Assembly (NCBI GenBank): GCA_965203985.1
Contig: CBDBDS010000002.1
Location: 38,945 to 102,944 of the forward strand
Source of the DNA: Dehalococcoidia bacterium
Lineage (GTDB): Bacteria; Chloroflexota; Dehalococcoidia; Lucifugimonadales; UBA3495
DNA length: 64,000 nt
Direction of reading: 5' to 3'
The notes under the pieces were generated by a model, which ran no database searches, was not told where the DNA came from, and was given only the letters and a program-made list of their open reading frames with translations. Position 1 is the first letter of the stretch. The number at the start of each line of letters is the position of its first letter. Of the stretch, positions 2,947-29,160 are shown piece by piece. A program made the position numbers and the translations under genes.

Positions 2947-3627
2947 CTAGTTCTCAGCGAAAAACCGGAAAATCGCCGTCTCGTCGTCGTGGCGGAACCT
3001 GCCGCCTCGGAACCGGATGTCCCGCCCCTGCTCGATATGCTGATCCACTAATTCCTTGACCCGACCCGAAGCGTCCTCGGCGTTGGCGGAACCACGCACA
3101 ATTTCCATCAGTTCGTCGCCAAGCAGGTTGTCGCTGACACCGTCAGTGCAGCACACCAGGCGATCCTCGGGGGACAGATCGATAGTGGTTTGAAACACCG
3201 ACAGGGTCGCTTCCGCGCCTATGGCCTTGGAGACGCCAAGGCGTATCAACCCGCCCATGCGGCCGCTGTACTGTTCGTATCCGTCCGGGCGGATCACGTA
3301 GATGGGGCTGTCTCCGGCAGAGATGATGTGGAGTTGGCCGCCCAGATACAGTGCTGCCGAGGCGGTGGTCAGCAGGAAACGCCCTCCACCGACCTGGTGG
3401 AACTCGGCGTTCTGCTCGTCCAGGACAGCAACGATATCCTCCGGGCCGGCGATGTCGATTGCGTTCAGGGCATCGGCAACGGAACCACTGGCCTCGTCGC
3501 CACCGTGACCGGTGACGCCGTCCAGCACCACGTCCAGGAAGTTCCCGCCGCCCAAATCCCGGGTCAGGTAGTTGTCCTCGCCGTGGGCGGCATTATCGTG
3601 AAGAATTGCCAACGAACTGGTGAGCAT
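2947..3627 (-). CDS. PP2C/PPM-family protein phosphatase
   Basis: Metal-binding motifs VLDGVTGHGG, AGDSPIY, CCTDGVSD, RHDDETA. Confidence 0.8.
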   Translation of the reverse strand: MLTSSLAILHDNAAHGEDNYLTRDLGGGNFLDVVLDGVTGHGGDEASGSVADALNAIDIAGPEDIVAVLDEQNAEFHQVGGGRFLLTTASAALYLGGQLHIISAGDSPIYVIRPDGYEQYSGRMGGLIRLGVSKAIGAEATLSVFQTTIDLSPEDRLVCCTDGVSDNLLGDELMEIVRGSANAEDASGRVKELVDQHIEQGRDIRFRGGRFRHDDETAIFRFFAEN

Positions 3628-3665
3628 AGTTCCTGCTTCCTCGCAAGAGATTGGTTAGCGGCGGA

Positions 3666-4685
3666 TCAGCCGGCCAGTTGGGCCAGCTCGGTATTCGCGT
3701 CGAATCGGTAACGGGTCCAATGATCCTCGGAGAGCCGGTGCAGCGCGGTGCGCCATGCTTCCAAAGCGGTCTGCGGCTCCGGCATCTGCTCGTTTCGGAT
3801 GGTAATCAGCCGCAGGCATTCGCGCAAGTCCGATGCAAAATCGGCTACGGATGCGTACCCGCGCTGTCGGACCTTGCCCAGGCACGCTGTCGCGGCGTCC
3901 CGCAGCGCATCGTCCGCTGACGCGAACGCGCTGATCAAGCTGTCGCATTCGTCCTCGATCGATATAACCGGGCGTTGGTTGTGCGGGTCGAAGTAGCCCG
4001 CTGCATCGGTGGGCGGCAGGTCCGGAGCCAGGTAGAACTTCACCATTTCGATGTAGAAGTCGTGGACATCCTGGGGGCCGCGGTTGCCTTGGGCTCGCTC
4101 TACGCCGTGTCCGACCAGTGCGGTTGCGTCCACCAGCGAGATCCGGCCGGTGCCCGGGGAATAGAACACGTTGTGCGGACCGAGATCCAACAGCGCGTAC
4201 CCGGCATCGGCGTAAATTTCCTGGGCCTCCAGCAGTTGCGACTGGACCGGCCAAGTGGCGACACCATCGGGCAGCGCAAGTGGATGCAGGGCGAAGAGGT
4301 TTTGTCCCAAGCCGATGGGGACCCGCAGGATACGGCTCCTGGGGTCTCCCACCAGGGGAATGCCCGCTGCGCGTTCCTCTACTCTCACCGAGTAGGGTTG
4401 ACCCAGGTCTTCGCCGAAATACGCGTCGTGAAGGGCTACATTGGTAACCCCGATCACGCGGGGCACGACGGCGGAAAATTGGCCAGCCCGCTCGTAAGCC
4501 TCAAGGGCTCGAGCGGTGCGCTCTTCGACGGGTCTGTGCATTTGACGACTGACCGTCTGCGGAGACGGCCGCTTCAGCACCACGGGTTCACCAGTCTCCC
4601 GATCCACCGCGGCGCGCACGTCGTAGTCGGCGCCGCTGCCCAGCGGCCCGACAAGTTCGAAGCGATCCAGCGTGACAGTTTCCAT
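3666..4685 (-). CDS. atypical protein-kinase-fold protein
   Basis: Gly loop LGSGADYDV, VVLK lysine, catalytic-loop-like LLDLGPHN, DFG-like VDAT. Confidence 0.6.
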   Translation of the reverse strand: METVTLDRFELVGPLGSGADYDVRAAVDRETGEPVVLKRPSPQTVSRQMHRPVEERTARALEAYERAGQFSAVVPRVIGVTNVALHDAYFGEDLGQPYSVRVEERAAGIPLVGDPRSRILRVPIGLGQNLFALHPLALPDGVATWPVQSQLLEAQEIYADAGYALLDLGPHNVFYSPGTGRISLVDATALVGHGVERAQGNRGPQDVHDFYIEMVKFYLAPDLPPTDAAGYFDPHNQRPVISIEDECDSLISAFASADDALRDAATACLGKVRQRGYASVADFASDLRECLRLITIRNEQMPEPQTALEAWRTALHRLSEDHWTRYRFDANTELAQLAG

Positions 4686-4701
4686 GATCGACGCCCGCGG
4701 A

Positions 4702-5562
4702 CTAGTGGTGTCCGCTCAGGATGGTGATCCAGTCTTCCTTCTGCCGAATTTCGCCGATGACCAACCCGGCCTCGTTGATCGCCGAAACCGCTTCGTCGTG
4801 CTGGTCCACAATAATCCCGGATGCGATGAACACGCCGTCATCGGCGAGAAGCTCGGGGATCGCCGGCGAGACCAGTCGGATGCCCCGGGCGCTGATGTTG
4901 GCCACGGCGATGTCGTATTTCTCGCCTCGAGTCGCGGCGCTGGGGATGCTGCCCGATTGGGCGTTGACGCGGTCGGCGATGCCGGTGCGACGGAAATTGC
5001 GTTGGGCGGCGCGTACCGCGTGCCCGTCGATGTCCACTGCGGTGATCCGTGTTGCGCCCAGCTTGGCCGCGGCGATGGTGAGTATTCCCGAGCCGGTTCC
5101 CACGTCAAGAACCGTGCTTCCGGGCCGAATCATCTCTTCCATGGCCTCCAGGCAAGAATAAGTTGTTGGATGATATCCCGTACCGAAAGCCAATCCCGGA
5201 TCCAGCTCCACCAGGACATCGCCGGGTTGTGCTTCATAGTCGATCCAAGAAGGCTTGATCACCAAATTCTGACCGACACGCAGCAGCGTAAAGTGCTGCT
5301 TCCAATTATCGCGCCAGTCCTCATTATCATCCAGGGGTCGGATCTGCAACTCGCCCAGGTCCGCGACGCTGGACGCCAGCTTGATACCCACCTCGATGTG
5401 GGCCAACCGCTGCCGGGAAAGACTGGGCAGATAGGAACGGAGCACCGCGTGCTCGCCGGGTCTGGTTTCAACACTCAACCCGTACCCGTACCGCTCAAAG
5501 AGGTAGGACACGGGCTCGACGTATTCGAAGGGAACGTTGATGCTCAGTTCGTGCCAGGACAT
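4702..5562 (-). CDS. prmA: ribosomal protein L11 methyltransferase
   Basis: DPGLAFGTGYHPTT, VLDVGTGSGIL; directly downstream of dnaJ. Confidence 0.92.
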   Translation of the reverse strand: MSWHELSINVPFEYVEPVSYLFERYGYGLSVETRPGEHAVLRSYLPSLSRQRLAHIEVGIKLASSVADLGELQIRPLDDNEDWRDNWKQHFTLLRVGQNLVIKPSWIDYEAQPGDVLVELDPGLAFGTGYHPTTYSCLEAMEEMIRPGSTVLDVGTGSGILTIAAAKLGATRITAVDIDGHAVRAAQRNFRRTGIADRVNAQSGSIPSAATRGEKYDIAVANISARGIRLVSPAIPELLADDGVFIASGIIVDQHDEAVSAINEAGLVIGEIRQKEDWITILSGHH

Positions 5563-5617
5563 CGCAGCGTCAGGGTAAGTGGAGGGAGCGCGACATCGGG
5601 CCGCCGAGCGAGCCCAA

Positions 5618-6874
5618 CTATTCGCCGCCCGAGGTCAGGGTGTCCTTGATGCGGTCAAACAGCCCGCGCTGCTTGTCGTCTTGTGGTGGCTCTTGGGTCT
5701 CGGCGCTGGCGTCAATTGCCGCCTCTTCCGGTTCCGTGGCTTCGTTTTCGACGGGTTTCCGGTTGCTGGCGCGTTTCTTTCGTGGGGGCGCGGGCGGCCT
5801 CTTGCCGTTGTTGGCCAGCGAATATGCCAGGTCTTCCACCAGTTTGCGCTGGTACTTGTTCAGCTTGGAAGGAATGTCCACGTCCACCAGGATACGGATG
5901 TCCCCCCGTCGGTCCGTGGGCCGGCCGTCGCGCCGGATGCGTGGTACGCCCCGCGAGCGCACGCGAAACTCGCTCCCGGCCTGGGTACCCGCCGGTATGT
6001 CGAGGTCGATGTCGTCGCCTTCGAGGGTAGGGATGGGTTTGGTCACGCCCAGGGCCGCTTCGGCCATATTGAGCGATGTCCGGTACACAAGGTCGGAATC
6101 GTCTCGCATGAACAACGGGTGCTCCCGAACGCGCAACTGAACGTAAAGGTTCCCGGGCGGCCCGCCGTTGGAACCAGCGTCACCCTCCCCGGTGATGCGG
6201 ACCTGCATACCGTCGTCGACGCCGGCGGGGATGGTAACGGTGCGGGTCCGGCGACGCCGTTCGAACCCGCGGGCGCGGCAATTGGAGCAGGGAGTTTCTA
6301 TGGACCGGCCATTACCATTGCAACTGGAACACGGGGTGGTGACGGCAAACTGGCCGAATACGCTGCGTTGAGCGCGACGCACCTGGCCGCTGCCATTGCA
6401 CGTCCGGCAGGTATTTATCGCCGTACCAGGCTCATTTCCCGCTCCGGAACAGTGGTGGCAAGGCTCCACCCGATTGATCTCGATGTCCTTGTCGCAACCG
6501 AACACAGCCTCTTCGAAAGTCAGGTTGACCCGTTGGCTGATGTCCTCCCCGCTGCGCGGCTGGTTGGCGGTACGGCCGCCGCCCCCGAAAAAGGTATCGA
6601 AGATGTCGCCGAAGCCACCGAACGGATCGAAACCGTCGAATGGGCGATCGCCGCCGTTTACGCCGGCGTGCCCGAAACGGTCATAACGGGTGCGCTTCTC
6701 CTGGTCGCTGAGGACCTGGTAGGCCTCGTTGATTTCCTTGAACTTGTCCTCAGCGCCGGGGGTTTTGTTCCGGTCGGGATGGAATTCCATCGCCTTCCTG
6801 CGGAAGGCGCGACGGATCTCCTCTTCGTTGGCGCCCCGGTCGACGCCGAGGGTCTCGTAATAGTCCACTGGCAT
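5618..6874 (-). CDS. dnaJ: chaperone DnaJ
   Basis: J-domain with HPD, G/F-rich region, four CxxCxGxG-type zinc motifs. Confidence 0.95.
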   Translation of the reverse strand: MPVDYYETLGVDRGANEEEIRRAFRRKAMEFHPDRNKTPGAEDKFKEINEAYQVLSDQEKRTRYDRFGHAGVNGGDRPFDGFDPFGGFGDIFDTFFGGGGRTANQPRSGEDISQRVNLTFEEAVFGCDKDIEINRVEPCHHCSGAGNEPGTAINTCRTCNGSGQVRRAQRSVFGQFAVTTPCSSCNGNGRSIETPCSNCRARGFERRRRTRTVTIPAGVDDGMQVRITGEGDAGSNGGPPGNLYVQLRVREHPLFMRDDSDLVYRTSLNMAEAALGVTKPIPTLEGDDIDLDIPAGTQAGSEFRVRSRGVPRIRRDGRPTDRRGDIRILVDVDIPSKLNKYQRKLVEDLAYSLANNGKRPPAPPRKKRASNRKPVENEATEPEEAAIDASAETQEPPQDDKQRGLFDRIKDTLTSGGE

Positions 6875-19065: not shown

Positions 19066-20631
19066 ATGACAACACAAAACACCCCCCCGGCCGGCCGAGT
19101 GATAATGGTGCAAGGCACGGCCTCCCACGTCGGCAAGAGCGTGCTGGTATCGGCGCTGTGTCGCATATTCCGGCAGGACGGGCTCCGAGTCGCGCCGTTC
19201 AAGGCGCAGAACATGTCGAATAACTCCTACGTTACGCCGGATGGCGGCGAAATCGGCCGCGCCCAGGCCGTCCAGGCCGAGGCCGCCGGCGTTGAAGCCC
19301 GGGTGGAAATGAACCCGGTCCTGCTCAAACCGGAAGCGGACAGCCACGCCCAGGTCGTCCTGATGGGCCGTCCCCTGACCTCCGCCCGCGCTCGCGATTA
19401 TTTCGACCTGAAAGCCACCCTGTGGGAATCCGTATCCAATTCGCTGGACGTTTTGCGCAGCCAGCACGATGTGGTCGTTATCGAGGGGGCGGGCAGCCCG
19501 GCGGAGATCAACCTGAAAGCCACCGAGATCGTGAATATGCGGGTCGCGCTCCATGCTAACGCGCCGGTGCTCCTGTGCGGCGACATCGACCGGGGCGGCG
19601 TGTTCGCATCGTTGGTGGGTACGTTGCAACTGCTGGATGATGCAGAGCGAGATCGGGTCAAGGGCCTCCTGATCAACAAGTTCCGCGGGGACGTCTCGCT
19701 CTTGACCGATGGGTTGACCTGGCTGGAAGACTACACGAGCAAACCCGTGGTTGGCGTGGTTCACCACTTCCGGGACATACACATTCCCGAAGAGGATTCG
19801 GTGGCGCTGGACATTACGCCGCCACACGCCTCCTCGCCTGACGTGCTGGACGTGGCGGTGGTGCAGGTCCCCCACATTTCAAACTTCGACGACTTCGACC
19901 CGCTGGCCCGGGAGCCGGGTGTCTCGCTCCGGTACGTCCAGAACGGCGACCGGCTGGGCCGGCCGGACCTGGTGATCCTTCCGGGCAGCAAGACAACCAT
20001 TCCCGACCTGATATGGATGGAACGGCAGGGATTGTCCCAAGCCGTGATGGGAGCTAAGGAGCACGGCTCCGCGATCATCGGCATCTGCGGCGGCTACCAG
20101 ATGTTGGGCAAAACCCTGCTGGACCCGGAACACATCGAGTCGTCAATCGGGGCTGCGGACGGCCTCGGGCTGCTCCCGCTGGTGACGACCTTCGCCGGAA
20201 CCAAGGAAACCCACCGGGTGGAAGCAACCGTCCGGCAAGAGGCGTCCACACGCGGCCACCTGATGTCGGGCGCCGACGGTGAAACGGTGGTTGGCTACGA
20301 GATACACATGGGCCGAACCACGGGCGAGGGCGTCATACCGCCGTTCACCGTAGTTGACCGGGCCGATGCCGCCGTCACCCCGGAGACGGCGTTTGATGGG
20401 GCGCTGGACGCCAGCGGTCGCGTGATGGGAACGTACATCCACGGGCTGTTCCACAACGCTGGCGTAAGGAGAGCCATCCTCGGAGAATTGGCGCGGCGGA
20501 AAGGCGTCGGGTTGCCCGAGGGGGTCGACGTGGCACGTGACCGGGAGTACGACCGGCTCGCCGATTGGGTGCGAGACAGCCTGCGCATGGACCTGGTATA
20601 CGACATGGCGGGGCTGACACCGGCGCTATGA
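19066..20631 (+). CDS. cobQ: cobyric acid synthase
   Basis: QGTASHVGKS, PFKAQNMSNNS, EGAGSPAEIN, GICGGYQMLG, GTYIHGLF. Confidence 0.95.
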   Translation: MTTQNTPPAGRVIMVQGTASHVGKSVLVSALCRIFRQDGLRVAPFKAQNMSNNSYVTPDGGEIGRAQAVQAEAAGVEARVEMNPVLLKPEADSHAQVVLMGRPLTSARARDYFDLKATLWESVSNSLDVLRSQHDVVVIEGAGSPAEINLKATEIVNMRVALHANAPVLLCGDIDRGGVFASLVGTLQLLDDAERDRVKGLLINKFRGDVSLLTDGLTWLEDYTSKPVVGVVHHFRDIHIPEEDSVALDITPPHASSPDVLDVAVVQVPHISNFDDFDPLAREPGVSLRYVQNGDRLGRPDLVILPGSKTTIPDLIWMERQGLSQAVMGAKEHGSAIIGICGGYQMLGKTLLDPEHIESSIGAADGLGLLPLVTTFAGTKETHRVEATVRQEASTRGHLMSGADGETVVGYEIHMGRTTGEGVIPPFTVVDRADAAVTPETAFDGALDASGRVMGTYIHGLFHNAGVRRAILGELARRKGVGLPEGVDVARDREYDRLADWVRDSLRMDLVYDMAGLTPAL

Positions 20632-21197
20632 GCTCGATACACCTGGTATTGGGCGGTATTCGGTCGGGGAAAAGCGCTTACGCGGAGCGGCTGACAGCCG
20701 AAATCGCCGGCTCGCATCCGGCGCTGTACGTCGCCACGGGTATCGCCGTCGACGCGGAGATGGAGGAGCGCATCCAACGACACCGGCAGCGGCGGCCCCA
20801 AAATTGGCAAACTCTTGAAGCTCCCCTGAATCCGGTTGGCGCGCTGCAGGGTCAGTCGCGCGCCATGGACCCTCCCACCGTCCTGCTGCTCGACTCAATG
20901 GACGTTTGGGTGTCGAATTTGATGCTGGAGCACGAGGGCACGGCGCGATTGGAATTGGAAGCCCGCATCGTGGGCGCGGCGCGGCGCTTTGCGGAATACA
21001 TCCGCGAGACGGATCGCCAGGCGGTGATCGTCAGCAGCGAAGTCGGGCATTCGTTGGTTGCCACGACCGCGATGGGCCGCCAATTCCAGGATCTGCTGGG
21101 AACGGTGAACCAGGCGATGGCGGAGGAAGCGGACCAAGTCACCATGGTAGTAGCCGGGTTGCCCGTTCCGATCAAGCCCGCGGGAACCGCCCGCTGA
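20628..21197 (+). CDS. cobU: adenosylcobinamide kinase/guanylyltransferase
   Basis: LVLGGIRSGKS, EMEERIQRHRQRRP, SSEVG, VAGLP; ATGA overlap with cobQ. Confidence 0.9.
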   Translation: MSSIHLVLGGIRSGKSAYAERLTAEIAGSHPALYVATGIAVDAEMEERIQRHRQRRPQNWQTLEAPLNPVGALQGQSRAMDPPTVLLLDSMDVWVSNLMLEHEGTARLELEARIVGAARRFAEYIRETDRQAVIVSSEVGHSLVATTAMGRQFQDLLGTVNQAMAEEADQVTMVVAGLPVPIKPAGTAR

Positions 21198-21234
21198 CCA
21201 GCGGTGGGCCGGCGCAAGGCGATGCGGCGACGCG

Positions 21235-22146
21235 ATGGCTGACTACACGTTGGGAACGGCTTCGGTGCTGGCGCCGGGAACCTGCGGAGAACTGGTGCAG
21301 GGAATGACCGGGGACGTGGACTTCCTGGTGACCTGCCCGATCAACCAATTCTCGCGAGCGACCGTCACCGTCTCCAGCTCAGATCAGCCCGGCGAGCATG
21401 TACGAGGAATCGACCACCTGCCAAAAACCCGCCAAGCCGTGGCTGACACGTTGGCACGACTCAGCCATTGCCTGGGAATGCCCGGCATCGTTGCCGACGC
21501 CACGGTGGCCAACCCGATGCCGGTGGGCAAAGGCATGGGCAGCAGCAGCGCGGACATCACGGCCGCGGTGTGCGCGACAGGAAAGGCCGTAAGTATCGAT
21601 TTGTCGCCGGATGCCATTGCAAAGATCGCGCTGGGGGTGGAGCCGACCGACGGCGTAATGTTTCCCGGCATCGCCATGTTCGATCACCGTCGCGGCAGAG
21701 TCCTTGAACTCCTGGGCCCTCCTCCACCGATGGAGGTGATAGTCATAGACCGCGGCGGTCAGGTAGATACGCTGGAGTTCAACCGGGTCGATCGCGAAGC
21801 GCACTGGCGGTCGCTCGACGATGCCACCACCGAGGCCCTGGAGTTGGTGCGCGAAGGCATCCGCCGGTGCGATCCGGAACTGGTGGGCCGGGGCGCCACC
21901 ATCTCGGCGCAAGCAGGGCGGCCGGATGACGCCGGCCCGTGGGTCGAAAAGGCGTCAGACTTCGCTGCTGAAATCGGCGCGGTGGGCGTCAACGTGGCCC
22001 ACAGCGGGACCGTGGTAGGCATCCTGTTGGACGCGCGCAAACGGCAGAGCAAGCCGGCGTTCAGGGAGGCACAACGCGCGTTTACGGCTGCGGAGAGCGT
22101 ACAGCATTACCGGATTGTTGGCGGGGGCGTGCGCCAGGCAGTTTAG
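21235..22146 (+). CDS. pduX: L-threonine kinase (GHMP family, PduX)
   Basis: PGTCGELVQG, PVGKGMGSSSAD, EPTDG, VAHSGTVVG; cobalamin context. Confidence 0.85.
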   Translation: MADYTLGTASVLAPGTCGELVQGMTGDVDFLVTCPINQFSRATVTVSSSDQPGEHVRGIDHLPKTRQAVADTLARLSHCLGMPGIVADATVANPMPVGKGMGSSSADITAAVCATGKAVSIDLSPDAIAKIALGVEPTDGVMFPGIAMFDHRRGRVLELLGPPPPMEVIVIDRGGQVDTLEFNRVDREAHWRSLDDATTEALELVREGIRRCDPELVGRGATISAQAGRPDDAGPWVEKASDFAAEIGAVGVNVAHSGTVVGILLDARKRQSKPAFREAQRAFTAAESVQHYRIVGGGVRQAV

Positions 22147-22547
22147 AACAATTCCTGTATCGCTTGCTCCGGCGCAATGGCCGGGATTGGGGAGTTGGTG
22201 AAATCCCTGGCGTCCCGAGTGACGATATACCTGACTCCGGCGGCTCGGGCGGCGGCAACCTGCATGGCGTCCTCGAAATCAGCCATCGGCAAGGATAGTG
22301 CGTAGCGGATGGACTCCGTGCCGGTTGGCACAACTTCGGCCAAGCCGGTAATGAAAACCACAAGCCCACGCGCCCGGTAGTCACTCAACTCTTTTGACAC
22401 CACGTAATGAAAAGTGGCTATGGTGTGCCAGGCAACGAACGCTCGCCCCGGTTCATTTGACAGGCGGTCAACCAACTCGGTAGAGGCTATTGAATGTGGA
22501 CGCCTGTCGAGCGCCACGTCGACGAGCACGTTAGTGTCAAGCAGCAT
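22143..22547 (-). CDS. PIN-domain (VapC-like) ribonuclease
   Basis: MLLDTNVLVD...DFEDAMQ...IVTRD..DF acidic PIN residues; ATG overlaps the upstream stop (TAATG). Confidence 0.88.
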   Translation of the reverse strand: MLLDTNVLVDVALDRRPHSIASTELVDRLSNEPGRAFVAWHTIATFHYVVSKELSDYRARGLVVFITGLAEVVPTGTESIRYALSLPMADFEDAMQVAAARAAGVRYIVTRDARDFTNSPIPAIAPEQAIQELF

Positions 22548-23536
22548 TATGACAAATACTTGCGCGCCAAGTATTCGTAGCGGTGATCGTACACTGGCTC
22601 CGTACCGAATCTCTCGCTTGGCCGTGTGTCGAGAGGTTGCAACTTGTCGCTGTATTCGCGCCGCCAGTGGAAAAGGTACTGGCTTGCATATCCGGCGTGC
22701 TCGCCGAACTCGCTGCGCGCTCGTTTCGCAACCGCCGCCAATTCCCATTCGTCAGGGGCAGCTTGCTCTTGCGAACCTAATTCCGGGCAAATTCCTGACA
22801 TTGCAAGCCATACCCAGATGTCCACCGGGAACGCTTCCAGCCGGTCCAGCGCAAATAGAGCAATGCAGTCGGCGATTCTGTCGTCAACGCCGGGACATTG
22901 CAACAACCGCCGATTAACCTCACCGTAAGGCTGTCGCCCCAGGGCGTCCCAATCCGGCCCGGCACCGCAAACCCATTGAGCGGCGGCGATGATATCAGAC
23001 GCATTATCCTGTCCCTTTTGCATCGCCTGCAACTTGGCCAGCGCCCTCTTGCGATCAGCCATCAATTGCTCCGCTGTCGGAAAGGAATAGCGGACTTCGC
23101 CGGCCAATTCTATTGCGGACCCGAAGTTATTTGCGATGTTCGACACCATCCCTATGGTATGGCCAATACTGGTTCGCGCCACGCAAATCTGGGACACCAA
23201 GCATTCCCAGGGATCTTGCCGGAGCAGGCGCAAGCCCGGCAACTCACGCATGATCGTGGACACTTTCGGGTCGCGGGCGATACTGGCGTAGATGACGTCG
23301 ATATCATCGTCCAGCCGGAAATAGCGGCGCAGGCATTCGTCAGGGTCGTCCATGTGCCCCGGCAAGCTGGCGGCTTCGTACTCGATGCCTCCATCAATCT
23401 GCCGGACGTGAAACAGGTGCGGCCCCACCACGCCGGAAAACCAGCCGTCGCCAAAGGGACGCCAGCGAAACGCTTGGCCCATGGTAAGAGTCAGGGCCAG
23501 GTTAAAGTGGTTAGGAATGAGGAGTTGGCGCGTCAT
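22547..23536 (-). CDS. OGG1-type 8-oxoguanine DNA glycosylase paralog 3 (catalytic Lys->Arg, C-terminal extension)
   Basis: MGQAFRW, LRQDPWECL, HhH PGVDDRIADC, FPVDIW, GYASQYLF, plus about 30 extra residues ending RYEYLARKYLS. Confidence 0.82.
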   Translation of the reverse strand: MTRQLLIPNHFNLALTLTMGQAFRWRPFGDGWFSGVVGPHLFHVRQIDGGIEYEAASLPGHMDDPDECLRRYFRLDDDIDVIYASIARDPKVSTIMRELPGLRLLRQDPWECLVSQICVARTSIGHTIGMVSNIANNFGSAIELAGEVRYSFPTAEQLMADRKRALAKLQAMQKGQDNASDIIAAAQWVCGAGPDWDALGRQPYGEVNRRLLQCPGVDDRIADCIALFALDRLEAFPVDIWVWLAMSGICPELGSQEQAAPDEWELAAVAKRARSEFGEHAGYASQYLFHWRREYSDKLQPLDTRPSERFGTEPVYDHRYEYLARKYLS

Positions 23537-23573
23537 AGCAAGCCCTCTTGGCCCCCGCGTCCGCTGTGGTTAT

Positions 23574-24485
23574 TCATTTAGGCTGGTCACAGAACATGAA
23601 CTGACCGGCGTAGCCGGCATACTGGCCAAACTTGTCCTGGGCCCACAATCTGATCGCCGCGTCATTTTTCGGCGCAGCGGGGTAATTTTGGGTCACGAAG
23701 CTCCGTATGTGCCTATCAATAGGGAAAGCCTCGGTTTTGTCCAGCGAAAACAGTGAAATGCAGTCGGCGATTTTGTCGCCTATGCCCTCCAGCCGTTTAA
23801 CCGCCCGTTTGGCGTGAGGGTAGGACTCGCTCCGCAGTGCATACAGGTTCAAGTCGCCATTGCACACTTCGCGCGCCGCCCCGGCGATTTTCCGGTCGCG
23901 TTGGAGACCGAACTGCATCCCCTGGAGGCTCGCGGCTGCGGTTTCCGTTATCAGAAGTTCGGGTGCCGGGAAAGTGTGACGCGCTTTGCCGCACATTTCA
24001 ATGGTGTCGCCAAACGCTGCGGAGATGCGTTCAACGATGCTTGAAATACGGGGGATGTTGTTGTTGGCAGAGCACAAGTATGCAACGGTGCATTCCCACG
24101 GATCCTGCCGCAGCAAACGCATGCCACCGTAGCTTTCGATTAGCCTGGCAATGCTGGCGTCGCGGTTGGTCAGATCGCTGTAGATGCGCGAAACATCGTC
24201 ATCCAACCTGAAGTAGCCTTGCAGCAGTGTCCGAACGTCCTCGTCGTCAGCCGGTCCACCGAATTTAGATGCGCGGTATTCGACGCGTGAACCGACCTGG
24301 CGCAAATGGATCAGAAAACTCCCGAGCACTCCGGAGTGCCACTCGCTGTCTGGATGGCGCCCACCATCTTCCAATTTGTCCACGCTGCCGTCCAACCTGC
24401 GCCACCGAAACGCCTGCCCCATGTACAAAGTCAGCCTGAGGCTGAAGGGCTGGGGGATTTCCAGTTCACCTTCAACAATGTTCAT
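23574..24485 (-). CDS. OGG1-type 8-oxoguanine DNA glycosylase/AP lyase paralog 2
   Basis: MGQAFRW, CSANNNIPRI, GIGDKIADC, FPIDRH, GYAGQFMF; start MNIVEG follows GGAGG. Confidence 0.85.
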   Translation of the reverse strand: MNIVEGELEIPQPFSLRLTLYMGQAFRWRRLDGSVDKLEDGGRHPDSEWHSGVLGSFLIHLRQVGSRVEYRASKFGGPADDEDVRTLLQGYFRLDDDVSRIYSDLTNRDASIARLIESYGGMRLLRQDPWECTVAYLCSANNNIPRISSIVERISAAFGDTIEMCGKARHTFPAPELLITETAAASLQGMQFGLQRDRKIAGAAREVCNGDLNLYALRSESYPHAKRAVKRLEGIGDKIADCISLFSLDKTEAFPIDRHIRSFVTQNYPAAPKNDAAIRLWAQDKFGQYAGYAGQFMFCDQPK

Positions 24486-24543
24486 CTCACAACCTCCACA
24501 GCGGAATCGCTCGGATCTATAGCGTTCAGAGAAGTGTGGGCAG

Positions 24544-25425
24544 TCACCGCCCCTCGCGCCGGCGCCCGTGGAACAGGTACTGCTGGGAATAGCCCGCGTA
24601 TTGACCGAAGTGCTCCTGCGCCCACTCCACCATTGCTCGGTCGGGTGGTTTTTTTTGCATCGGGAAATACCACTCCGCAAGCGCGCGGCGCACCCACACG
24701 TCCACCGGGAACGCCTGTAGCTTTTCCAACGAGAACACCGCGATGCAATCGGCGATCTTGGCGCCGATGCCGTAGCACTCCATGAGCCTGGACTTGGTTT
24801 CCGGATAGGGCAGCCGGACCAGTTCGTCCAGGTCCAGTTCGCCGCCGCAGACCCGCTGGGCCGCCGCGACGACGTAAGGAGCACGGAACCCCAGGCCCAG
24901 TTCTCGAAGAAACCCCTCTCCGGCGGAGGCCAGTTGCTCGGCGGACGCGAAGGTGTGCCGGACTTCCCCGTCCAGTTCCAGCGGGTCGCCCAGGCTGTCG
25001 GCCATGGCCTCCATGTTCTGGTGAATGCGAGGGATGTTGGACGTGGCGGAGCAGATGAACGCCACCGTGCACTCCCAGGGTTCCTGGCGCAGAATACGCA
25101 GTCCCGGATAACGGGCCACCATTTCCGCGACCCGCCGGTCTCGGCAAATGTCGGCGTATATCGTGTCGATGTCGTCATCGAGACGGAAATAGAAGCGCAG
25201 CAAGTCCGGCAGCGCGCCCGGGCCCACGGCATCGCCAGAGCCCGTGGCGCTATATTCCACACCTTCGGGCACCTGCCGGATGTGAATGAGCCACGGGCCC
25301 AACACGCCTGAATACCAGCCGTCCCCCAGATTCTTCCAGCGATGGGCCTGCCCGCTTTCGAGGCTCTCCGCCAGGTCAAAGGGCTGGTCTATCGCCAGTT
25401 GCCCCGTCCGTTCCAGCGCCGCCAA
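24544..25425 (-). CDS. OGG1-type 8-oxoguanine DNA glycosylase/AP lyase paralog 1
   Basis: SGQAHRW, CSATSNIPRI, LGLGFRA, GIGAKIADC, FPVDVW, GYSQQYLF. Confidence 0.88.
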   Translation of the reverse strand: MAALERTGQLAIDQPFDLAESLESGQAHRWKNLGDGWYSGVLGPWLIHIRQVPEGVEYSATGSGDAVGPGALPDLLRFYFRLDDDIDTIYADICRDRRVAEMVARYPGLRILRQEPWECTVAFICSATSNIPRIHQNMEAMADSLGDPLELDGEVRHTFASAEQLASAGEGFLRELGLGFRAPYVVAAAQRVCGGELDLDELVRLPYPETKSRLMECYGIGAKIADCIAVFSLEKLQAFPVDVWVRRALAEWYFPMQKKPPDRAMVEWAQEHFGQYAGYSQQYLFHGRRREGR

Positions 25426-25451
25426 CCCCTCACCTCCCTTGGAGACGCCGA

Positions 25452-28295
25452 CTAACCGGTTCGAGGACGGTCGAGTTGCAGCCAGCGGGCCGCCTGCTCG
25501 CCAACGGTGTTGACGCTGGAGCGTTCGACCGTGCAGGGCGGCAGCGCATTCAGGAAGCGGTCACCGTAGTTGGCGGTCTGGATGCGACGGTCCAGGATGA
25601 CCACCGCCCCCCGGTCCACCTTGTTGCGGATCAACCGGCCGAACCCCTGCCGGAAACGGAGGACGGCGGAAGGCACCTGGTATTCGTTGAACGGGTTGTT
25701 GAACAGGTTCCCCCGGGCCTTGACGATGGGATCGGTAGGCACCGGGAAAGGCAGGCGGCACAGCAACAGCCCACGCAGGATGCCCGACTCCATGTCGACA
25801 CCCTCCCAGAAACTGGCGGTGCCGAGCAGGACGGCGCGCGGGTCGGCGTGGAGCCGGTCCACCAGTTGCCGCGGCGTGCCGTCGATCCCCTGGGCCAGGA
25901 CGTTGATGCCCGACGCGCGCAAGGGCCCCCGGACGTGGAAGGAAGCGTCTCGCAGCGCACTGTGGGAAGTGAACAGCGCCATGACGTGTCCGTCCAATGC
26001 CTGCGCCATGTTGAGGATCACCTGGGCCGTCCCGCGGGCGTGGTCAGCGCCGCGACGCGGATCGGGGAGGTCATCGGGAACCATCAGCAGGGTATTGCGC
26101 CGGTAGTTGAACGGGCTATCGACCAGCAGTTCGTCGCAATCGTCGGGGAATCCCAAACGCTGGCGCAGGAAACCAAAGTTGCTGTCCGTCGCCAGGGTCG
26201 CGCTGGTCAAAACCACCGTCTCTTTCTGCTGGAACAGCATCTCAGACAGGATGGGGCCGACCGACAACGGAGTGGAATGCAGCGTCAAGTTGCGCCGCAC
26301 CATGTCGATCCATTGGATCTGTTCCTCATCGTAACGGCCAAAGACCGAAGTCAGACGGTTATTGAACTCGGAGACGGTGTCTACCGCGCTGATCAGTTCG
26401 TTTGCCTGGCTGTCGTCGGAGAGATCGAATATCCCCTGGTCCACCAGCCTCCAGACGTCGTTCAGGCGGTTCACGCTATCCGCCATAAAGGTCGAGAACG
26501 ATTCCCATTCGCGGGCGGCGGCGCCCCATTCCCGGCTCTGCCGCACCGAGGGCTCCAGGGAGACCGGCTGACGGTCATTGTCACCCCGGGTGTGTGATTG
26601 ATAGAGGCTGGTGATCGCCGCCCACAGCTGTTGCCATGCCTGCAGGGCCTGGTTGCAACTGGCCGTGGCGTTGGTGAGGGCGTCCCGCGCCCGCCCGAGG
26701 TTTTCGTCCTCCGGCGACTGGTTGGCGATGGAGGTCAGGTGCCGGAACAAGCGGTAAACGGCGTCCATTTCCTGGGCCAGATCGTCCTCGGCCATCTCAA
26801 AACCCAACTGCCGGCTTGCCTCTTCCTCCAGGTGGTGGGCTTCGTCGACTATGAGGTGCTGGTAGTCCTGCAACACGGTGCCGCCGACGGCAAGGTCAGC
26901 AAGCAGCAGGGCGTGGTTCACCACCAGGATGTTGGCCTCCTCGGCTCGTTGGCGGGCCTGGCGCAGGAAGCAGGGCGCGCCGCCGCGGAACGACTGGCAC
27001 ACGCCCTGGTTGTCGGCGCACACCCGCAACCAGGCTCGATGGTCTCCAAAGTTCAGGTTGAGGTCGGTTCGGTCGCCATTCTGCGTATCGTCCAGCCAGA
27101 CTGCCGTTTTCCCGAGAACCCTGGCCTCATCCTCAGTCAAGGTGTCCGACGTGCCCAGGCTGGTCCACCGGCGGAGGCACACGTAATTGGATCGACCTTT
27201 GAGTTGAGCCGCTCGAACGGCCCCCGGTTCCAGTATGCCGGCCTCTTCCAGGATGGAGATAACCGCCGGTATGTCCTTATCCATCAGCTGCTCCTGCAAG
27301 CTGATGGTGTTGGTGGAGATCACCACCCGGTGCCCATGAGTGGCCGAGTAAAGAACCGCCGGGAGCAGATAGGCGATGCTCTTGCCGATACCGGTGCCAC
27401 CTTCAACGATGAGCTTTCTGCCCTGATAGATGGCGCGGGTGACGGCCTTCAGCATCTCGGCCTGTTGGGGCCTGTTTTCAAATCCGGGGAACGAGTTGGC
27501 GAACACGCCGTGGGGGGCCAGAAGGTCCTCCACCTGCTGCTCGGTGAGCTCGCGTCGTATGGCCTTGCCGTTTTTGTCTCCGGCCTCGCTGGACAGTCTC
27601 CGGGCCAGGCTGTCCAGGTTCAATCCATTGAGGCCGACGGCGCCGGGGGTCCCCGGAACCGCGTTGGCGCCGGGAGCGTGGGGCACAAGCGCTTCGAGCA
27701 AGTCCGCCACGGAGGCATTGGCGGCACGGGCGGAGCGGGCAATAAACGCAACCTTTGCCGCCGGGTAGGACGCACCAAGCTTCAGCAGATGATGGAACAC
27801 CAGCGCGGTGGTTTCGGCGTCGGCCACAGCGCGATGGGCCTGGTTATGGTCTAGGTCCAGGTGCCTGGCCAGCGCGCTAAGATTGTATTCCGGCAGGGTG
27901 GGAAGGAATATCGACGCCAGGTCCCAGGTGTTGTAACTCCGGTTCGTGAGGTGAAGTCCGTGCGATGACAAGAATGACAGGTCGAAGGCGATGTTGTGCC
28001 CGACGATGGGCAGGTCGCCAACGAACGTGGCGAACTGTGCTGCGATTTGTTGGAATCGCGGCGCCCGTTCGATTTGCGCCGGGCTGATGGACGTCAGTTG
28101 CTGGATGAAAGTGGGTATCTGACGGCCCGGGTTGACGAACGTTTGGTACCGGTCGGTAACCTCACCGCCACGGAACTTGACCGCTCCTACTTCGATAATG
28201 GCATCGGAATGTGCATTCAGACCCGTGGTCTCCAGGTCCACGCACACGAATTCACGTTCGAATATGTCGCTTTGAGGCAGCAGCGTCGGCGTCAT
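25452..28295 (-). CDS. dinG: DnaQ-like DEDDh exonuclease fused to DinG-family helicase
   Basis: VDLETTG, GHNIAFD, HRAVADA; EGGTGIGKS, DEAH, SATL, FWEGVD, QGFGRLIR. Confidence 0.9.
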   Translation of the reverse strand: MTPTLLPQSDIFEREFVCVDLETTGLNAHSDAIIEVGAVKFRGGEVTDRYQTFVNPGRQIPTFIQQLTSISPAQIERAPRFQQIAAQFATFVGDLPIVGHNIAFDLSFLSSHGLHLTNRSYNTWDLASIFLPTLPEYNLSALARHLDLDHNQAHRAVADAETTALVFHHLLKLGASYPAAKVAFIARSARAANASVADLLEALVPHAPGANAVPGTPGAVGLNGLNLDSLARRLSSEAGDKNGKAIRRELTEQQVEDLLAPHGVFANSFPGFENRPQQAEMLKAVTRAIYQGRKLIVEGGTGIGKSIAYLLPAVLYSATHGHRVVISTNTISLQEQLMDKDIPAVISILEEAGILEPGAVRAAQLKGRSNYVCLRRWTSLGTSDTLTEDEARVLGKTAVWLDDTQNGDRTDLNLNFGDHRAWLRVCADNQGVCQSFRGGAPCFLRQARQRAEEANILVVNHALLLADLAVGGTVLQDYQHLIVDEAHHLEEEASRQLGFEMAEDDLAQEMDAVYRLFRHLTSIANQSPEDENLGRARDALTNATASCNQALQAWQQLWAAITSLYQSHTRGDNDRQPVSLEPSVRQSREWGAAAREWESFSTFMADSVNRLNDVWRLVDQGIFDLSDDSQANELISAVDTVSEFNNRLTSVFGRYDEEQIQWIDMVRRNLTLHSTPLSVGPILSEMLFQQKETVVLTSATLATDSNFGFLRQRLGFPDDCDELLVDSPFNYRRNTLLMVPDDLPDPRRGADHARGTAQVILNMAQALDGHVMALFTSHSALRDASFHVRGPLRASGINVLAQGIDGTPRQLVDRLHADPRAVLLGTASFWEGVDMESGILRGLLLCRLPFPVPTDPIVKARGNLFNNPFNEYQVPSAVLRFRQGFGRLIRNKVDRGAVVILDRRIQTANYGDRFLNALPPCTVERSSVNTVGEQAARWLQLDRPRTG

Positions 28296-28327
28296 CGCGA
28301 TGAATTACACTCGAAGCGGAACCGCGC

Positions 28328-29032
28328 TTACGCCGAGCGCAAGCGGTACGGCCGCAAGGATCCCTGCCGCAGCCCTTCTAACGGGCGGAAGTCCCCGCGA
28401 TGCAGTGCCGTGAGGAATTGGGCCTCGTCAAAGACTTCGTCGGGGAATTCGGTCACGAATTTGCCCAGCCCGTGGGTGCTGTGAGCGTCGCTGCCACCGG
28501 TCACCGGCAGGTCCAATCGTTGGGCGACCTCGGCAGCAAAGCGGTTTTCCTCGTCCGACGTGCCGCCGTTGGCAACCTCGATGGCGTCGGCCAGCTGGAA
28601 CACCGGATGCGTCATGGCAGTGTCGACATCCTGGGGGATCGGCTCCTTGGGGTCGGGATAGAGTAGAGGACGGGTTCGGTGATGTCGCCCCAGGACTCCC
28701 CGGAATGGGTGCGCCGACACGACGAAACCGCCGACGGCGTGGGCCGCTTTGCTCAGCTCCTCCGCGCGGTGGAACCCACTCTGGTACCGGTCCACGCCGA
28801 AAGCCAGGATGTGACCCATGTCGGTGTCGGCTTCCATGGCGCGTATGAGCACGACGTTGTGTAGGGCGGCAAAGGCGGCGAATTCGTGACGGTCCCAGGG
28901 GCCGGAATGCTCGGTGATGCACAGGCCGCGCAGTCCCAGACGTTCTGCCTCCAAGATGAGTTCTTCGGGCGTCAGGCTGGAATCGGCGCTGCCTTTGGTC
29001 GTATGGATGTGTAAGTCGAAAATGCGTGACAT
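28328..29032 (-). CDS. PHP-domain phosphoesterase
   Basis: DLHIHT, ITEH, AHPFR, GGSDAH. Confidence 0.85.
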   Translation of the reverse strand: MSRIFDLHIHTTKGSADSSLTPEELILEAERLGLRGLCITEHSGPWDRHEFAAFAALHNVVLIRAMEADTDMGHILAFGVDRYQSGFHRAEELSKAAHAVGGFVVSAHPFRGVLGRHHRTRPLLYPDPKEPIPQDVDTAMTHPVFQLADAIEVANGGTSDEENRFAAEVAQRLDLPVTGGSDAHSTHGLGKFVTEFPDEVFDEAQFLTALHRGDFRPLEGLRQGSLRPYRLRSA

Positions 29033-29160
29033 AAGCCCTACCAGTCTATGCGTAGCCCGGAACCGCGTCAACGCCGGCGCGTCGTTCCGCGCCCTGAGCC
29101 TCTGATAAAATGCCCGCGAATCCCCTACCCGAAGGGCAAGATTTCCAGGAGATGAGAGAT

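Follow-up and report, generated by a model that had tools for sequence, protein, structure and literature searches.

An OGG1-like protein with an antitoxin-type tail, encoded directly upstream of a VapC-like PIN gene in a Dehalococcoidia genome, as a probable chimeric toxin-antitoxin module

A 64,000-nucleotide stretch of a Dehalococcoidia genome (assembly GCA_965203985.1, contig CBDBDS010000002.1; here called the window) encodes three tandem homologs of the DNA glycosylase OGG1 and, directly after the third, a PIN-domain protein. The third homolog (copy 3) has a degenerate active site and carries a C-terminal tail of antitoxin type. Copy 3 and the PIN gene probably constitute a chimeric type II VapBC-like toxin-antitoxin module, in which the OGG domain would have replaced the DNA-binding domain of the antitoxin. 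The features of the pair are as follows.

22146..22547 (stop codon 22143-22145), minus strand: PIN_3/VapC-like gene, 134 amino acids (aa); Pfam PIN_3 (PF13470), E 2.3e-18
22545..22549, minus strand: TAATG stop/start overlap of copy 3 and the PIN gene; read in the sequence
22550..22657, minus strand: antitoxin-type tail of copy 3, residues 294-329; tail profile, hhalign and AlphaFold2 (AF2)
22658..23536, minus strand: OGG1-like core of copy 3, residues 1-293, active site degenerate; OGG_N and Foldseek
22550-23536, minus strand: OGG-like copy 3, whole gene, 329 aa; OGG_N, E 1.7e-20
22865..22891, minus strand: helix-hairpin-helix (HhH) motif GVDDRIADC of copy 3; alignment with the paralogs and human OGG1
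22877-22879, minus strand: R220 codon (AGA) of copy 3, at the position of human OGG1 K249
23156..23185, minus strand: loop CVARTSIGHT of copy 3, replacing the CS(A/S)NNNI(P/A)RI of OGG1 enzymes; alignments

On the plus strand, positions 22545-22549 are CATTA, so the coding strand reads TAATG. The last A of the copy 3 TAA is the first base of the PIN ATG, a one-base overlap. Copy 3 abuts the PIN gene on its upstream side without a gap and a separate antitoxin open reading frame (ORF) is absent there, just as the original prediction had described the junction. The two genes appear to be translationally coupled. A longer ORF of 201 aa (22143-22748) was considered as the true PIN gene and rejected, as its N-terminal 67 residues are copy 3 read out of frame and all homologs begin with MLLDT or MLIDT just past the antitoxin stop.

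To see what accompanies related PIN genes, one genome per species was scanned with the PIN protein. The scan gave 120 confirmed relatives, from which the best 80 loci were kept, and the ORF ending at the PIN start defined the partner class of each locus. The upstream partner in 59 of the 80 is a small protein of the KLTI/V type, MK.KLTITVD...AKRYARSRGVSLSSLIE...SF..RWRGKF....DDPRY.ALARKYL. Two loci have a partner with a Phd/YefM-like N-terminus and the same ending (Pfam scores below the cut-off), and nine have an OGG-like protein with that ending. The remaining ten are unresolved; several are apparently frameshifted yet show the ending. The small antitoxins upstream of the closest PIN genes are 73-80 aa long and of the DUF6364 ribbon-helix-helix (RHH) type, with all three that were scanned matching Pfam DUF6364 (PF19891; E 2e-13 to 8e-13). 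Such antitoxins upstream of this PIN subfamily had been named in the original prediction, and the link proved sound, down to an ending, RY.ALARKYL, like that of copy 3.

The tail of copy 3 was compared with these antitoxins in two ways. A profile of 63 antitoxin C-termini, none taken from OGG fusions, was searched against the 80,293 six-frame ORFs of at least 30 aa in the window genome. The copy 3 ORF was its single significant match (E 7.2e-4, 21.3 bits; next best E 0.069), with no other copy of the tail in the genome. Using hhalign, 72 tailed OGGs and 24 full-length DUF6364 antitoxins aligned with a probability of 97.5% (E 8e-12), and only OGG columns 309-350 paired with antitoxin columns 37-74, that is, the OGG C-terminus with the C-terminal half of the antitoxins. 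The breakpoint lies just past the RHH domain: the sequence is retained from about 'E.PSF' to the end, along with the stop/start overlap with the PIN gene. The window-type junction, with the stop starting 2 nt before the PIN start, is present in most DUF6364-PIN loci and in seven of the nine OGG-tail-PIN loci among the best 80. By these sequence comparisons, the copy 3 tail and the C-terminal half of DUF6364 antitoxins are homologous. The proposed similarity of the tail to PIN-associated antitoxins was thereby borne out, and together with the shared junction it supports an OGG1-like domain standing in place of the antitoxin DNA-binding domain, coupled to a PIN gene. The AF2 model predicts the tail to be disordered (pLDDT below 50 at residues 301-329) with a terminal helix at residues 318-328. 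The last 11 residues are identical in the window and in the related loci L005, L006 and L007, with one residue differing in L008.

The PIN protein resembles VapC toxins by fold. Its AF2 model has a pLDDT of 95.9, and in Foldseek it matches VapC chains from VapBC complexes best (TM 0.70-0.75). A sequence search of the PDB with the PIN profile gave no match at E<=0.01; the VapC likeness came from the fold search. Residues D4, D90, E92, D93 and D115 are invariant among 30 homologs. In the PIN tree the OGG-linked proteins are one clade (nine rows, SH-aLRT 99) nested among the DUF6364-linked PINs, pointing to an ordinary DUF6364-PIN pair as the ancestor of the OGG-linked module. The window genome (97% complete) encodes exactly one PIN of this family, the one linked to copy 3, and five other genomes with the fusion likewise encode exactly one each, OGG-linked. 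Elsewhere in the window genome (contig 13; L230:1492-2161, G000), an ordinary DUF6364-like antitoxin (85 aa, 31 bits) overlaps a 140-aa PIN gene. That PIN belongs to another subfamily, which the family profile does not match, and its antitoxin is without the RY..LA.KYL ending. Co-folding of the PIN protein with copy 3 residues 283-329 scored 0.01 (mark 0.32) in a run without controls, and the score was used neither for nor against binding. The tail residue after RY. (Y or A) combines with PIN residues 44-45 (AT or SN) as Y-AT in 10 cases, A-SN in 44 and Y-SN in 5, raw counts that are suggestive of covariation but amount to only two or three phylogenetically independent pairs.

To determine how widely OGG-like proteins carry the tail, we searched proteins with copy 3 and kept the best 120 of 4,969 matches, which with the three copies of the window make 123 sequences; counts in this set describe the top of the match list and not frequency in nature. 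The tail is present at the C-terminus of 74 of the 123 (12.8-49 bits with the tail profile that excludes OGG fusions) and absent from 49. Clustered at 90% identity, the family comprises no fewer than 74 clusters. An OGG-tail protein followed by the PIN gene was found in nine other genome assemblies, all Dehalococcoidia/Chloroflexota metagenome-assembled genomes. All nine loci were found with PIN as the query, which limits the claim that every tailed OGG has a PIN partner. Contigs of four sequencing runs from four studies bridge the copy 3/PIN junction, one run being maybe the window's own sample. Among 22 runs listed, none was of RNA. The fusion therefore occurs beyond the assembly in which it was first noticed. 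It is rare in whole-genome samples. Among 401 genomes of the class, 83 had an OGG-like match and only the window genome reached the tail; among 301 genomes of the order around G401, 49 had a match and only G401 reached the tail. Loci with an untailed OGG had neither this PIN nor the tail (0 of 109 and 0 of 29), and the 80 metagenome loci drawn from the OGG alignment, which served as controls, were all untailed.

A quick LG+G4 tree of the OGG cores was made with tails removed (120 rows). In it, 68 tailed proteins group together as a clade (SH-aLRT 99). A further small group of tailed proteins (P0087, P0114, P0115, P0117 and, at the borderline, P0121) lies inside an untailed clade, and the OGG of locus L039 is of the same type. 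The approximately unbiased test rejected monophyly of the tailed cores as a whole (p 0.004), for a group named after the tree was seen. As the PINs form one clade and the tailed cores do not, on at least one occasion the tail-PIN cassette was apparently joined anew to another OGG paralog, which a deletion or a recombination among OGG copies in tandem could bring about.

The other two OGG-like genes of the window, both tailless, provide the nearest comparison for the core of copy 3.

about 23577-24485, minus strand: OGG-like copy 2, tailless, with lysine, NNN loop and aspartate retained; OGG_N, E 2e-19
24547-25425, minus strand: OGG-like copy 1, canonical-looking, tailless; OGG_N, E 2.7e-18, and HhH-GPD above cut-off

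In the three-way alignment the HhH motif of copy 3 reads GVDDRIADC against GIGDKIADC and GIGAKIADC in the paralogs, the loop reads CVARTSIGHT against CSANNNIPRI and CSATSNIPRI, and a C-terminal extension of about 36 residues is found in copy 3 only. A HMMER alignment to human OGG1 (PDB 1ko9) places R220 of copy 3 opposite the catalytic K249 and D239 opposite D268. The GQ and Q..F of OGG1 are retained, and the hairpin G-x-G reads G-V-D. The arginine in the HhH motif, the altered intercalation loop and the tail unique to copy 3 had all been read correctly from the letters. The loss of the GxRA arginine was seen in copy 3 as well, but it is also missing from copy 2. The AF2 model of copy 3 (pLDDT 84.8) matches OGG1 structures in Foldseek with TM 0.76-0.79. 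The HhH-GPD model scored above its cut-off only in copy 1, with copy 3 unmatched at E<=0.1, and for TIGR00588 (cut-off 397.85 bits) copy 3 scored 147.7 bits and copies 1 and 2 scored 187.5 and 165.8, all below. Copy 3 thus has the two-domain fold of OGG1 and its aspartate (D239) without the catalytic lysine.

All lysine losses in the OGG set fall in one 27-row subclade that includes the window (SH-aLRT 100), with at least four changes. Residues in this subclade were compared with those of the 93 other rows (46 other tailed and 47 untailed), using human OGG1 numbering.

HhH hairpin glycine: G1, S16, D7, N3 in the subclade; G in 93/93 others
Lysine K249 equivalent: K5, E12, R6, T2, I1, P1 in the subclade; K in 93/93 others
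Cysteine C253 equivalent: C7, R18, Y2 in the subclade; C in 93/93 others
N149 equivalent: N in 1/27 of the subclade; mostly N (60/93) in the others
G42/Q43, D268 and Q315 equivalents (copy 3 G20/Q21, D239, Q286): 27/27 in the subclade; invariant in the others
F319 equivalent (copy 3 F289): 24/27 in the subclade; 92/93 in the others

The lysine-to-arginine change, whose conservation the original prediction had proposed to check, is not conserved across the fusions. It occurs in only six of 74 tailed homologs, the window's six closest cluster representatives, and P0010 has isoleucine and P0011 (L008) lysine there; across the 74, K, R, E, T, I and P all occur at this site. The claim of a retained 8-oxoG pocket stood in part: GQ, the aspartate and Q..F are kept, but the Cys253 equivalent is replaced in 20 of the 27 subclade members and the hairpin glycine in 26. 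With the lysine, the hairpin glycine, the loop touching the strand opposite the lesion and mostly the Cys253 equivalent lost in the subclade, the core of copy 3 is very probably no longer a DNA glycosylase, and judging from these motifs it probably binds DNA poorly. Glutamate at the lysine position is always paired with arginine at the Cys253-equivalent position (GVSDETADR; 12 of 12 full-length sequences, P0013-P0043 group), and the two may be a compensating pair within the former active site.

The 46 tailed OGGs outside the degenerate subclade retain G, K, C and D at the catalytic positions and look catalytically intact from their sequences. The pattern reads as an active-looking OGG paralog that gained the tail first, the catalytic and DNA-contact motifs decaying together later in one lineage. 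Long coexistence of an active glycosylase with the tail is also what one would expect if the two proteins form a repair or RNA-quality-control complex, with the tail as a tether that recruits the PIN nuclease to an OGG-type lesion reader and PIN no growth toxin. The window genes moreover follow a DnaQ-DinG fusion and two OGG paralogs. We regard such a complex as improbable. The PIN lineage is nested among the PINs of ordinary antitoxin-toxin operons, and VapC toxins are the nearest structural matches of its model. The tail corresponds by homology to the half of antitoxins that neutralises the toxin, the OGG core of the window is without its catalytic and DNA-contact motifs, and the tandem OGG/DinG context is not shared by L011, L039, L041 and L065. 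Some untailed OGG homologs (P0062, P0068, P0116 and P0111) have another C-terminal extension with paired cysteines (e.g. CP.CEAPIGRHCKYPSGY..AGHKAR). This cysteine-rich extension is possibly a zinc ribbon, another C-terminal addition to OGG.

Selection on the module was assessed by Nei-Gojobori dN/dS among the window and L005-L008, where dS reaches about 1-2. The ratio was 0.13-0.32 for the copy 3 core, 0-0.44 for the tail, 0.11-0.19 for PIN (four genomes) and 0.06-0.13 for the canonical copy 1. Copy 3 is therefore constrained, less strongly than copy 1, and the relaxed selection that the original prediction had named as a sign of chance joining was not what we found: the core is under purifying selection. 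Values well below 1 exclude free decay of copy 3. A functional pocket and mere maintenance of the fold are not separable by dN/dS, and a toxin selecting against changes that destabilise the carrier of the tail could alone explain the pattern. The simplest reading of the OGG core in the window subclade is a pseudo-glycosylase, kept by selection as a stable scaffold that carries the tail. Copy 2 as found in the window and L005 has diverged very strongly from the middle OGG copy of L006-L008, with dN about 0.5 and dS saturated, and its terminal branch is long (0.69). Across the window and L005-L008, the middle copies are possibly not orthologs.

Several observations weigh against a chimeric toxin-antitoxin module. 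PIN domains canonically have a second acidic residue after strand 2; no such residue is apparent in the PIN protein, where W40-H41 occupy the site. In L007 (2997-3110) the PIN frame is broken after about residue 26 (MLLDTNVLVDVALDRRPHSIAATELTAW and then a stop, resuming in another frame) with the OGG-tail gene intact, representing either a real loss of a dispensable PIN or an assembly error. The lysine is retained in 51 of the 74 tailed OGGs, so an inactive enzyme is no necessary companion of the fusion. Pfam DUF6364 matched none of five isolated tails at E<=10 (nor did any Pfam family), and the full copy 3 protein had no PF19891 match; the tail homology thus rests on profiles built in this analysis. 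Finally, RWRGKF reads RPSERF in the window's nearest relatives, and only the distal half, ...RYEYLARKYLS, is well conserved.

The eroded proximal tail motif of the window clade, the frameshifted PIN of L007 and the degenerate catalytic motifs of copy 3 would also fit an evolutionary leftover, in which an OGG was joined by deletion to one half of an antitoxin, with an inactive PIN and a drifting copy 3 as the outcome. This we hold to be very improbable, given dN/dS well below 1 for core, tail and PIN across four to five genomes even with dS to about 1-2, last 11 tail residues that are the same in the window and L005-L007 and changed once in L008, PIN acidic residues without variation in 30 homologs, and a family of at least 74 clusters.

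To find the tail on other proteins, the tail profile was searched exhaustively against 1.84 billion cluster representatives. It matched 170 proteins at E<=0.001, and the 150 listed are mostly 35-125 aa long. Longer matches among those listed are the OGG fusion P0039, the Phd-like P0175 and the 232-aa P0152; the other long matches look like mis-called ORFs and were set aside. The N-terminal 144 residues of P0152 match the Dam methyltransferase family (PF05869, 28.8 bits, cut-off 28.1) and its last 34 residues are a clean tail (62.8 bits; ...SFVKRWRGKFRPAERDDDPRYRYLARKYLT). Dam enzymes carry a (D/N/S)PP(Y/F) motif. P0152 reads SPPR at that position, suggesting it may also be inactive. A word-based search for longer proteins with the L015 tail scored none, which is weak evidence as it missed the OGG fusions as well. 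As judged from sequence, the N-terminal domains that bear the tail are of no fewer than four kinds: RHH, Phd-like, OGG-like and Dam-like.

The genes around the pair were also examined. Downstream of PIN lie a convergent GHMP-kinase-like gene and then cobU/cobQ. On the upstream side the OGG copies are preceded by one further gene.

25455..28295, minus strand: DnaQ-type exonuclease/DinG-type helicase fusion, 947 aa; RNase_T, DEAD and Helicase_C_2 domains

The DnaQ-DinG fusion is on the same strand, 26 nt upstream of copy 1, and is possibly in the same operon as the OGG copies and PIN. A promoter/terminator scan of 21800-28800 gave nothing above shuffles that bears on the operon. The fusion and a PHP-domain protein lie directly upstream of the three OGG copies (25455-29071, minus strand) and make up a repair-gene cluster together with them. 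L011, L039, L041 and L065 do not share the tandem OGG and DinG arrangement. Beside PIN, convergent ORFs of about 306, 185 and 490 aa are found in L006, L008, L011, L039, L041 and L065 (about 3405-6390) and not in L064. They match the GHMP-kinase-like gene, cobU and cobQ of the window (19066-22146) in size and order, with deep branches of the fusion included. Upstream genes vary among the relatives' loci, L065 having Lit and Uma2. With its recurring downstream flank and differing upstream one, the locus looks more like a vertically inherited chromosomal site than like a mobile island. PADLOC gave no match for PIN, the three OGG copies or a small antitoxin.

It is possible, though we doubt it, that the same chimeric antitoxin is gated by a sensor. 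The OGG-like domain would be a trigger, a damaged or modified base, modified phage DNA or a phage anti-repair protein would release the tail, and the PIN RNase would arrest the cell as a checkpoint or by abortive infection. Consistent with this, the core is under purifying selection despite its lost catalytic residues, and G20/Q21, D239 and Q286 are kept by all 27 members of the degenerate subclade and F289 by 24. These residues may instead be structural. The END nucleases, in which an inactivated EndoIII/OGG-like domain recognises hypermodified phage DNA, are a precedent (PMC12191111). The same tail on the Dam-like P0152 means that enzyme-type domains acting on DNA bases recur with it. Against a sensor, the pocket is remodelled, with the Cys253 equivalent replaced in 20 of 27 members and an E-R pairing (12/12) that could fill it, and in 26 of 27 the hairpin glycine has given way to S, D or N, a change that speaks against an ordinary mode of DNA engagement. 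The locus, moreover, is in no defence island: it lies between repair and cobalamin genes, with the cobalamin-type flank in six of the seven relatives examined (not L064), and it matches no PADLOC model. That the OGG-like domain reads base damage or modified bases, be it in DNA, RNA or the nucleotide pool, and so gates the PIN RNase is, in our judgement, rather unlikely.

We return to the chimeric module with a tail-bearing scaffold as the probable arrangement. In its origin, an ancestral DUF6364(RHH)-PIN operon would have lost the RHH half of its antitoxin, and the remaining C-terminal half would have become the C-terminal tail of an OGG1-type glycosylase paralog, with the original antitoxin-toxin stop/start overlap retained through the fusion. 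Copy 3 and PIN would be produced together, their expression presumably driven with that of the upstream genes. The C-terminal half of VapB-type antitoxins wraps and blocks the toxin. In like manner the disordered tail and terminal helix of copy 3 may bind PIN and keep its putative RNase activity silent. With the RHH domain lost, operator binding and autoregulation are not expected.

Type II antitoxins are usually viewed as small operator-binding proteins with a disordered toxin-binding tail, and here a full-size DNA-repair fold carries the tail. The cores form an apparent evolutionary series from catalytically intact to catalytically dead. If the tail neutralises PIN, the family shows a toxin locking a host gene in place and a repair enzyme turned into a pseudo-enzyme scaffold. 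It would then also be a candidate for the coupling of base-damage or modified-base recognition to an RNase, a theme recently shown for the inactivated EndoIII/OGG domains of END nucleases. The ...RWRGKF...RY..LA.KYL segment is a short, portable, putative PIN-binding peptide for experiments. Should the sensor reading be true, a repair enzyme would have been made into a switch for a DNA-damage checkpoint or for abortive infection, and the Dam-like tail protein P0152 would mark a wider class of 'DNA-enzyme-domain antitoxins'.

We searched the literature for a glycosylase-domain antitoxin, or for any DNA-repair or DNA-modification enzyme fold as the N-terminal domain of a VapB-type antitoxin, and found no description, with subscription journals and supplements outside the scope of the search. 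The closest known systems are the DUF6364 (PF19891)/PIN_3 VapBC pairs. The window pair shares with them the PIN lineage (46-58% identical), the C-terminal antitoxin segment, the gene order and the stop/start overlap. Unlike in these pairs, an OGG1-type fold of about 290 aa takes the place of the RHH DNA-binding and dimerising domain of about 40 aa, and the putative antitoxin is about four times larger. Of what characterises VapBC, the pair has a PIN protein of the VapC kind and a putative antitoxin gene directly upstream, without the small operator-binding N-terminal fold, for which no RHH match was found. In the general model for VapBC pairs, VapC is inhibited by the C-terminal part of the antitoxin, whose N-terminal part binds operator DNA (PMC5389673).

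Like human OGG1 and Clostridium Ogg, copy 3 has the two-domain fold (28-30% identity) with GQ, the catalytic aspartate and Q..F. It differs from the OGG1 family by the lysine-to-arginine change, the HhH G-x-G changed to G-V-D, the NNN..R loop changed to RTS..H and the added antitoxin tail. In END nucleases an inactivated EndoIII/OGG-like domain is fused to a PLD nuclease, a single polypeptide that cuts hypermodified phage DNA (PMC12191111; bioRxiv 10.1101/2025.03.31.646159). Both systems couple a catalytically inactivated glycosylase domain of the HhH superfamily to a nuclease effector. Unlike END nucleases, the window has a full OGG1-type two-domain protein that would be linked non-covalently, through its tail, to a separate VapC-like PIN protein, with no PLD domain; it also has no defence-island context.

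Modular antitoxins with swapped N-terminal domains (RHH, Phd/YefM, AbrB and HTH) are known, as are sensor-type fused antitoxins such as CapRel. Similar to these, the tail described here is found on RHH, Phd-like, OGG-like and Dam-like N-terminal domains. We rate the VapBC-type module as known in kind and its enzyme-derived antitoxin body as unprecedented.

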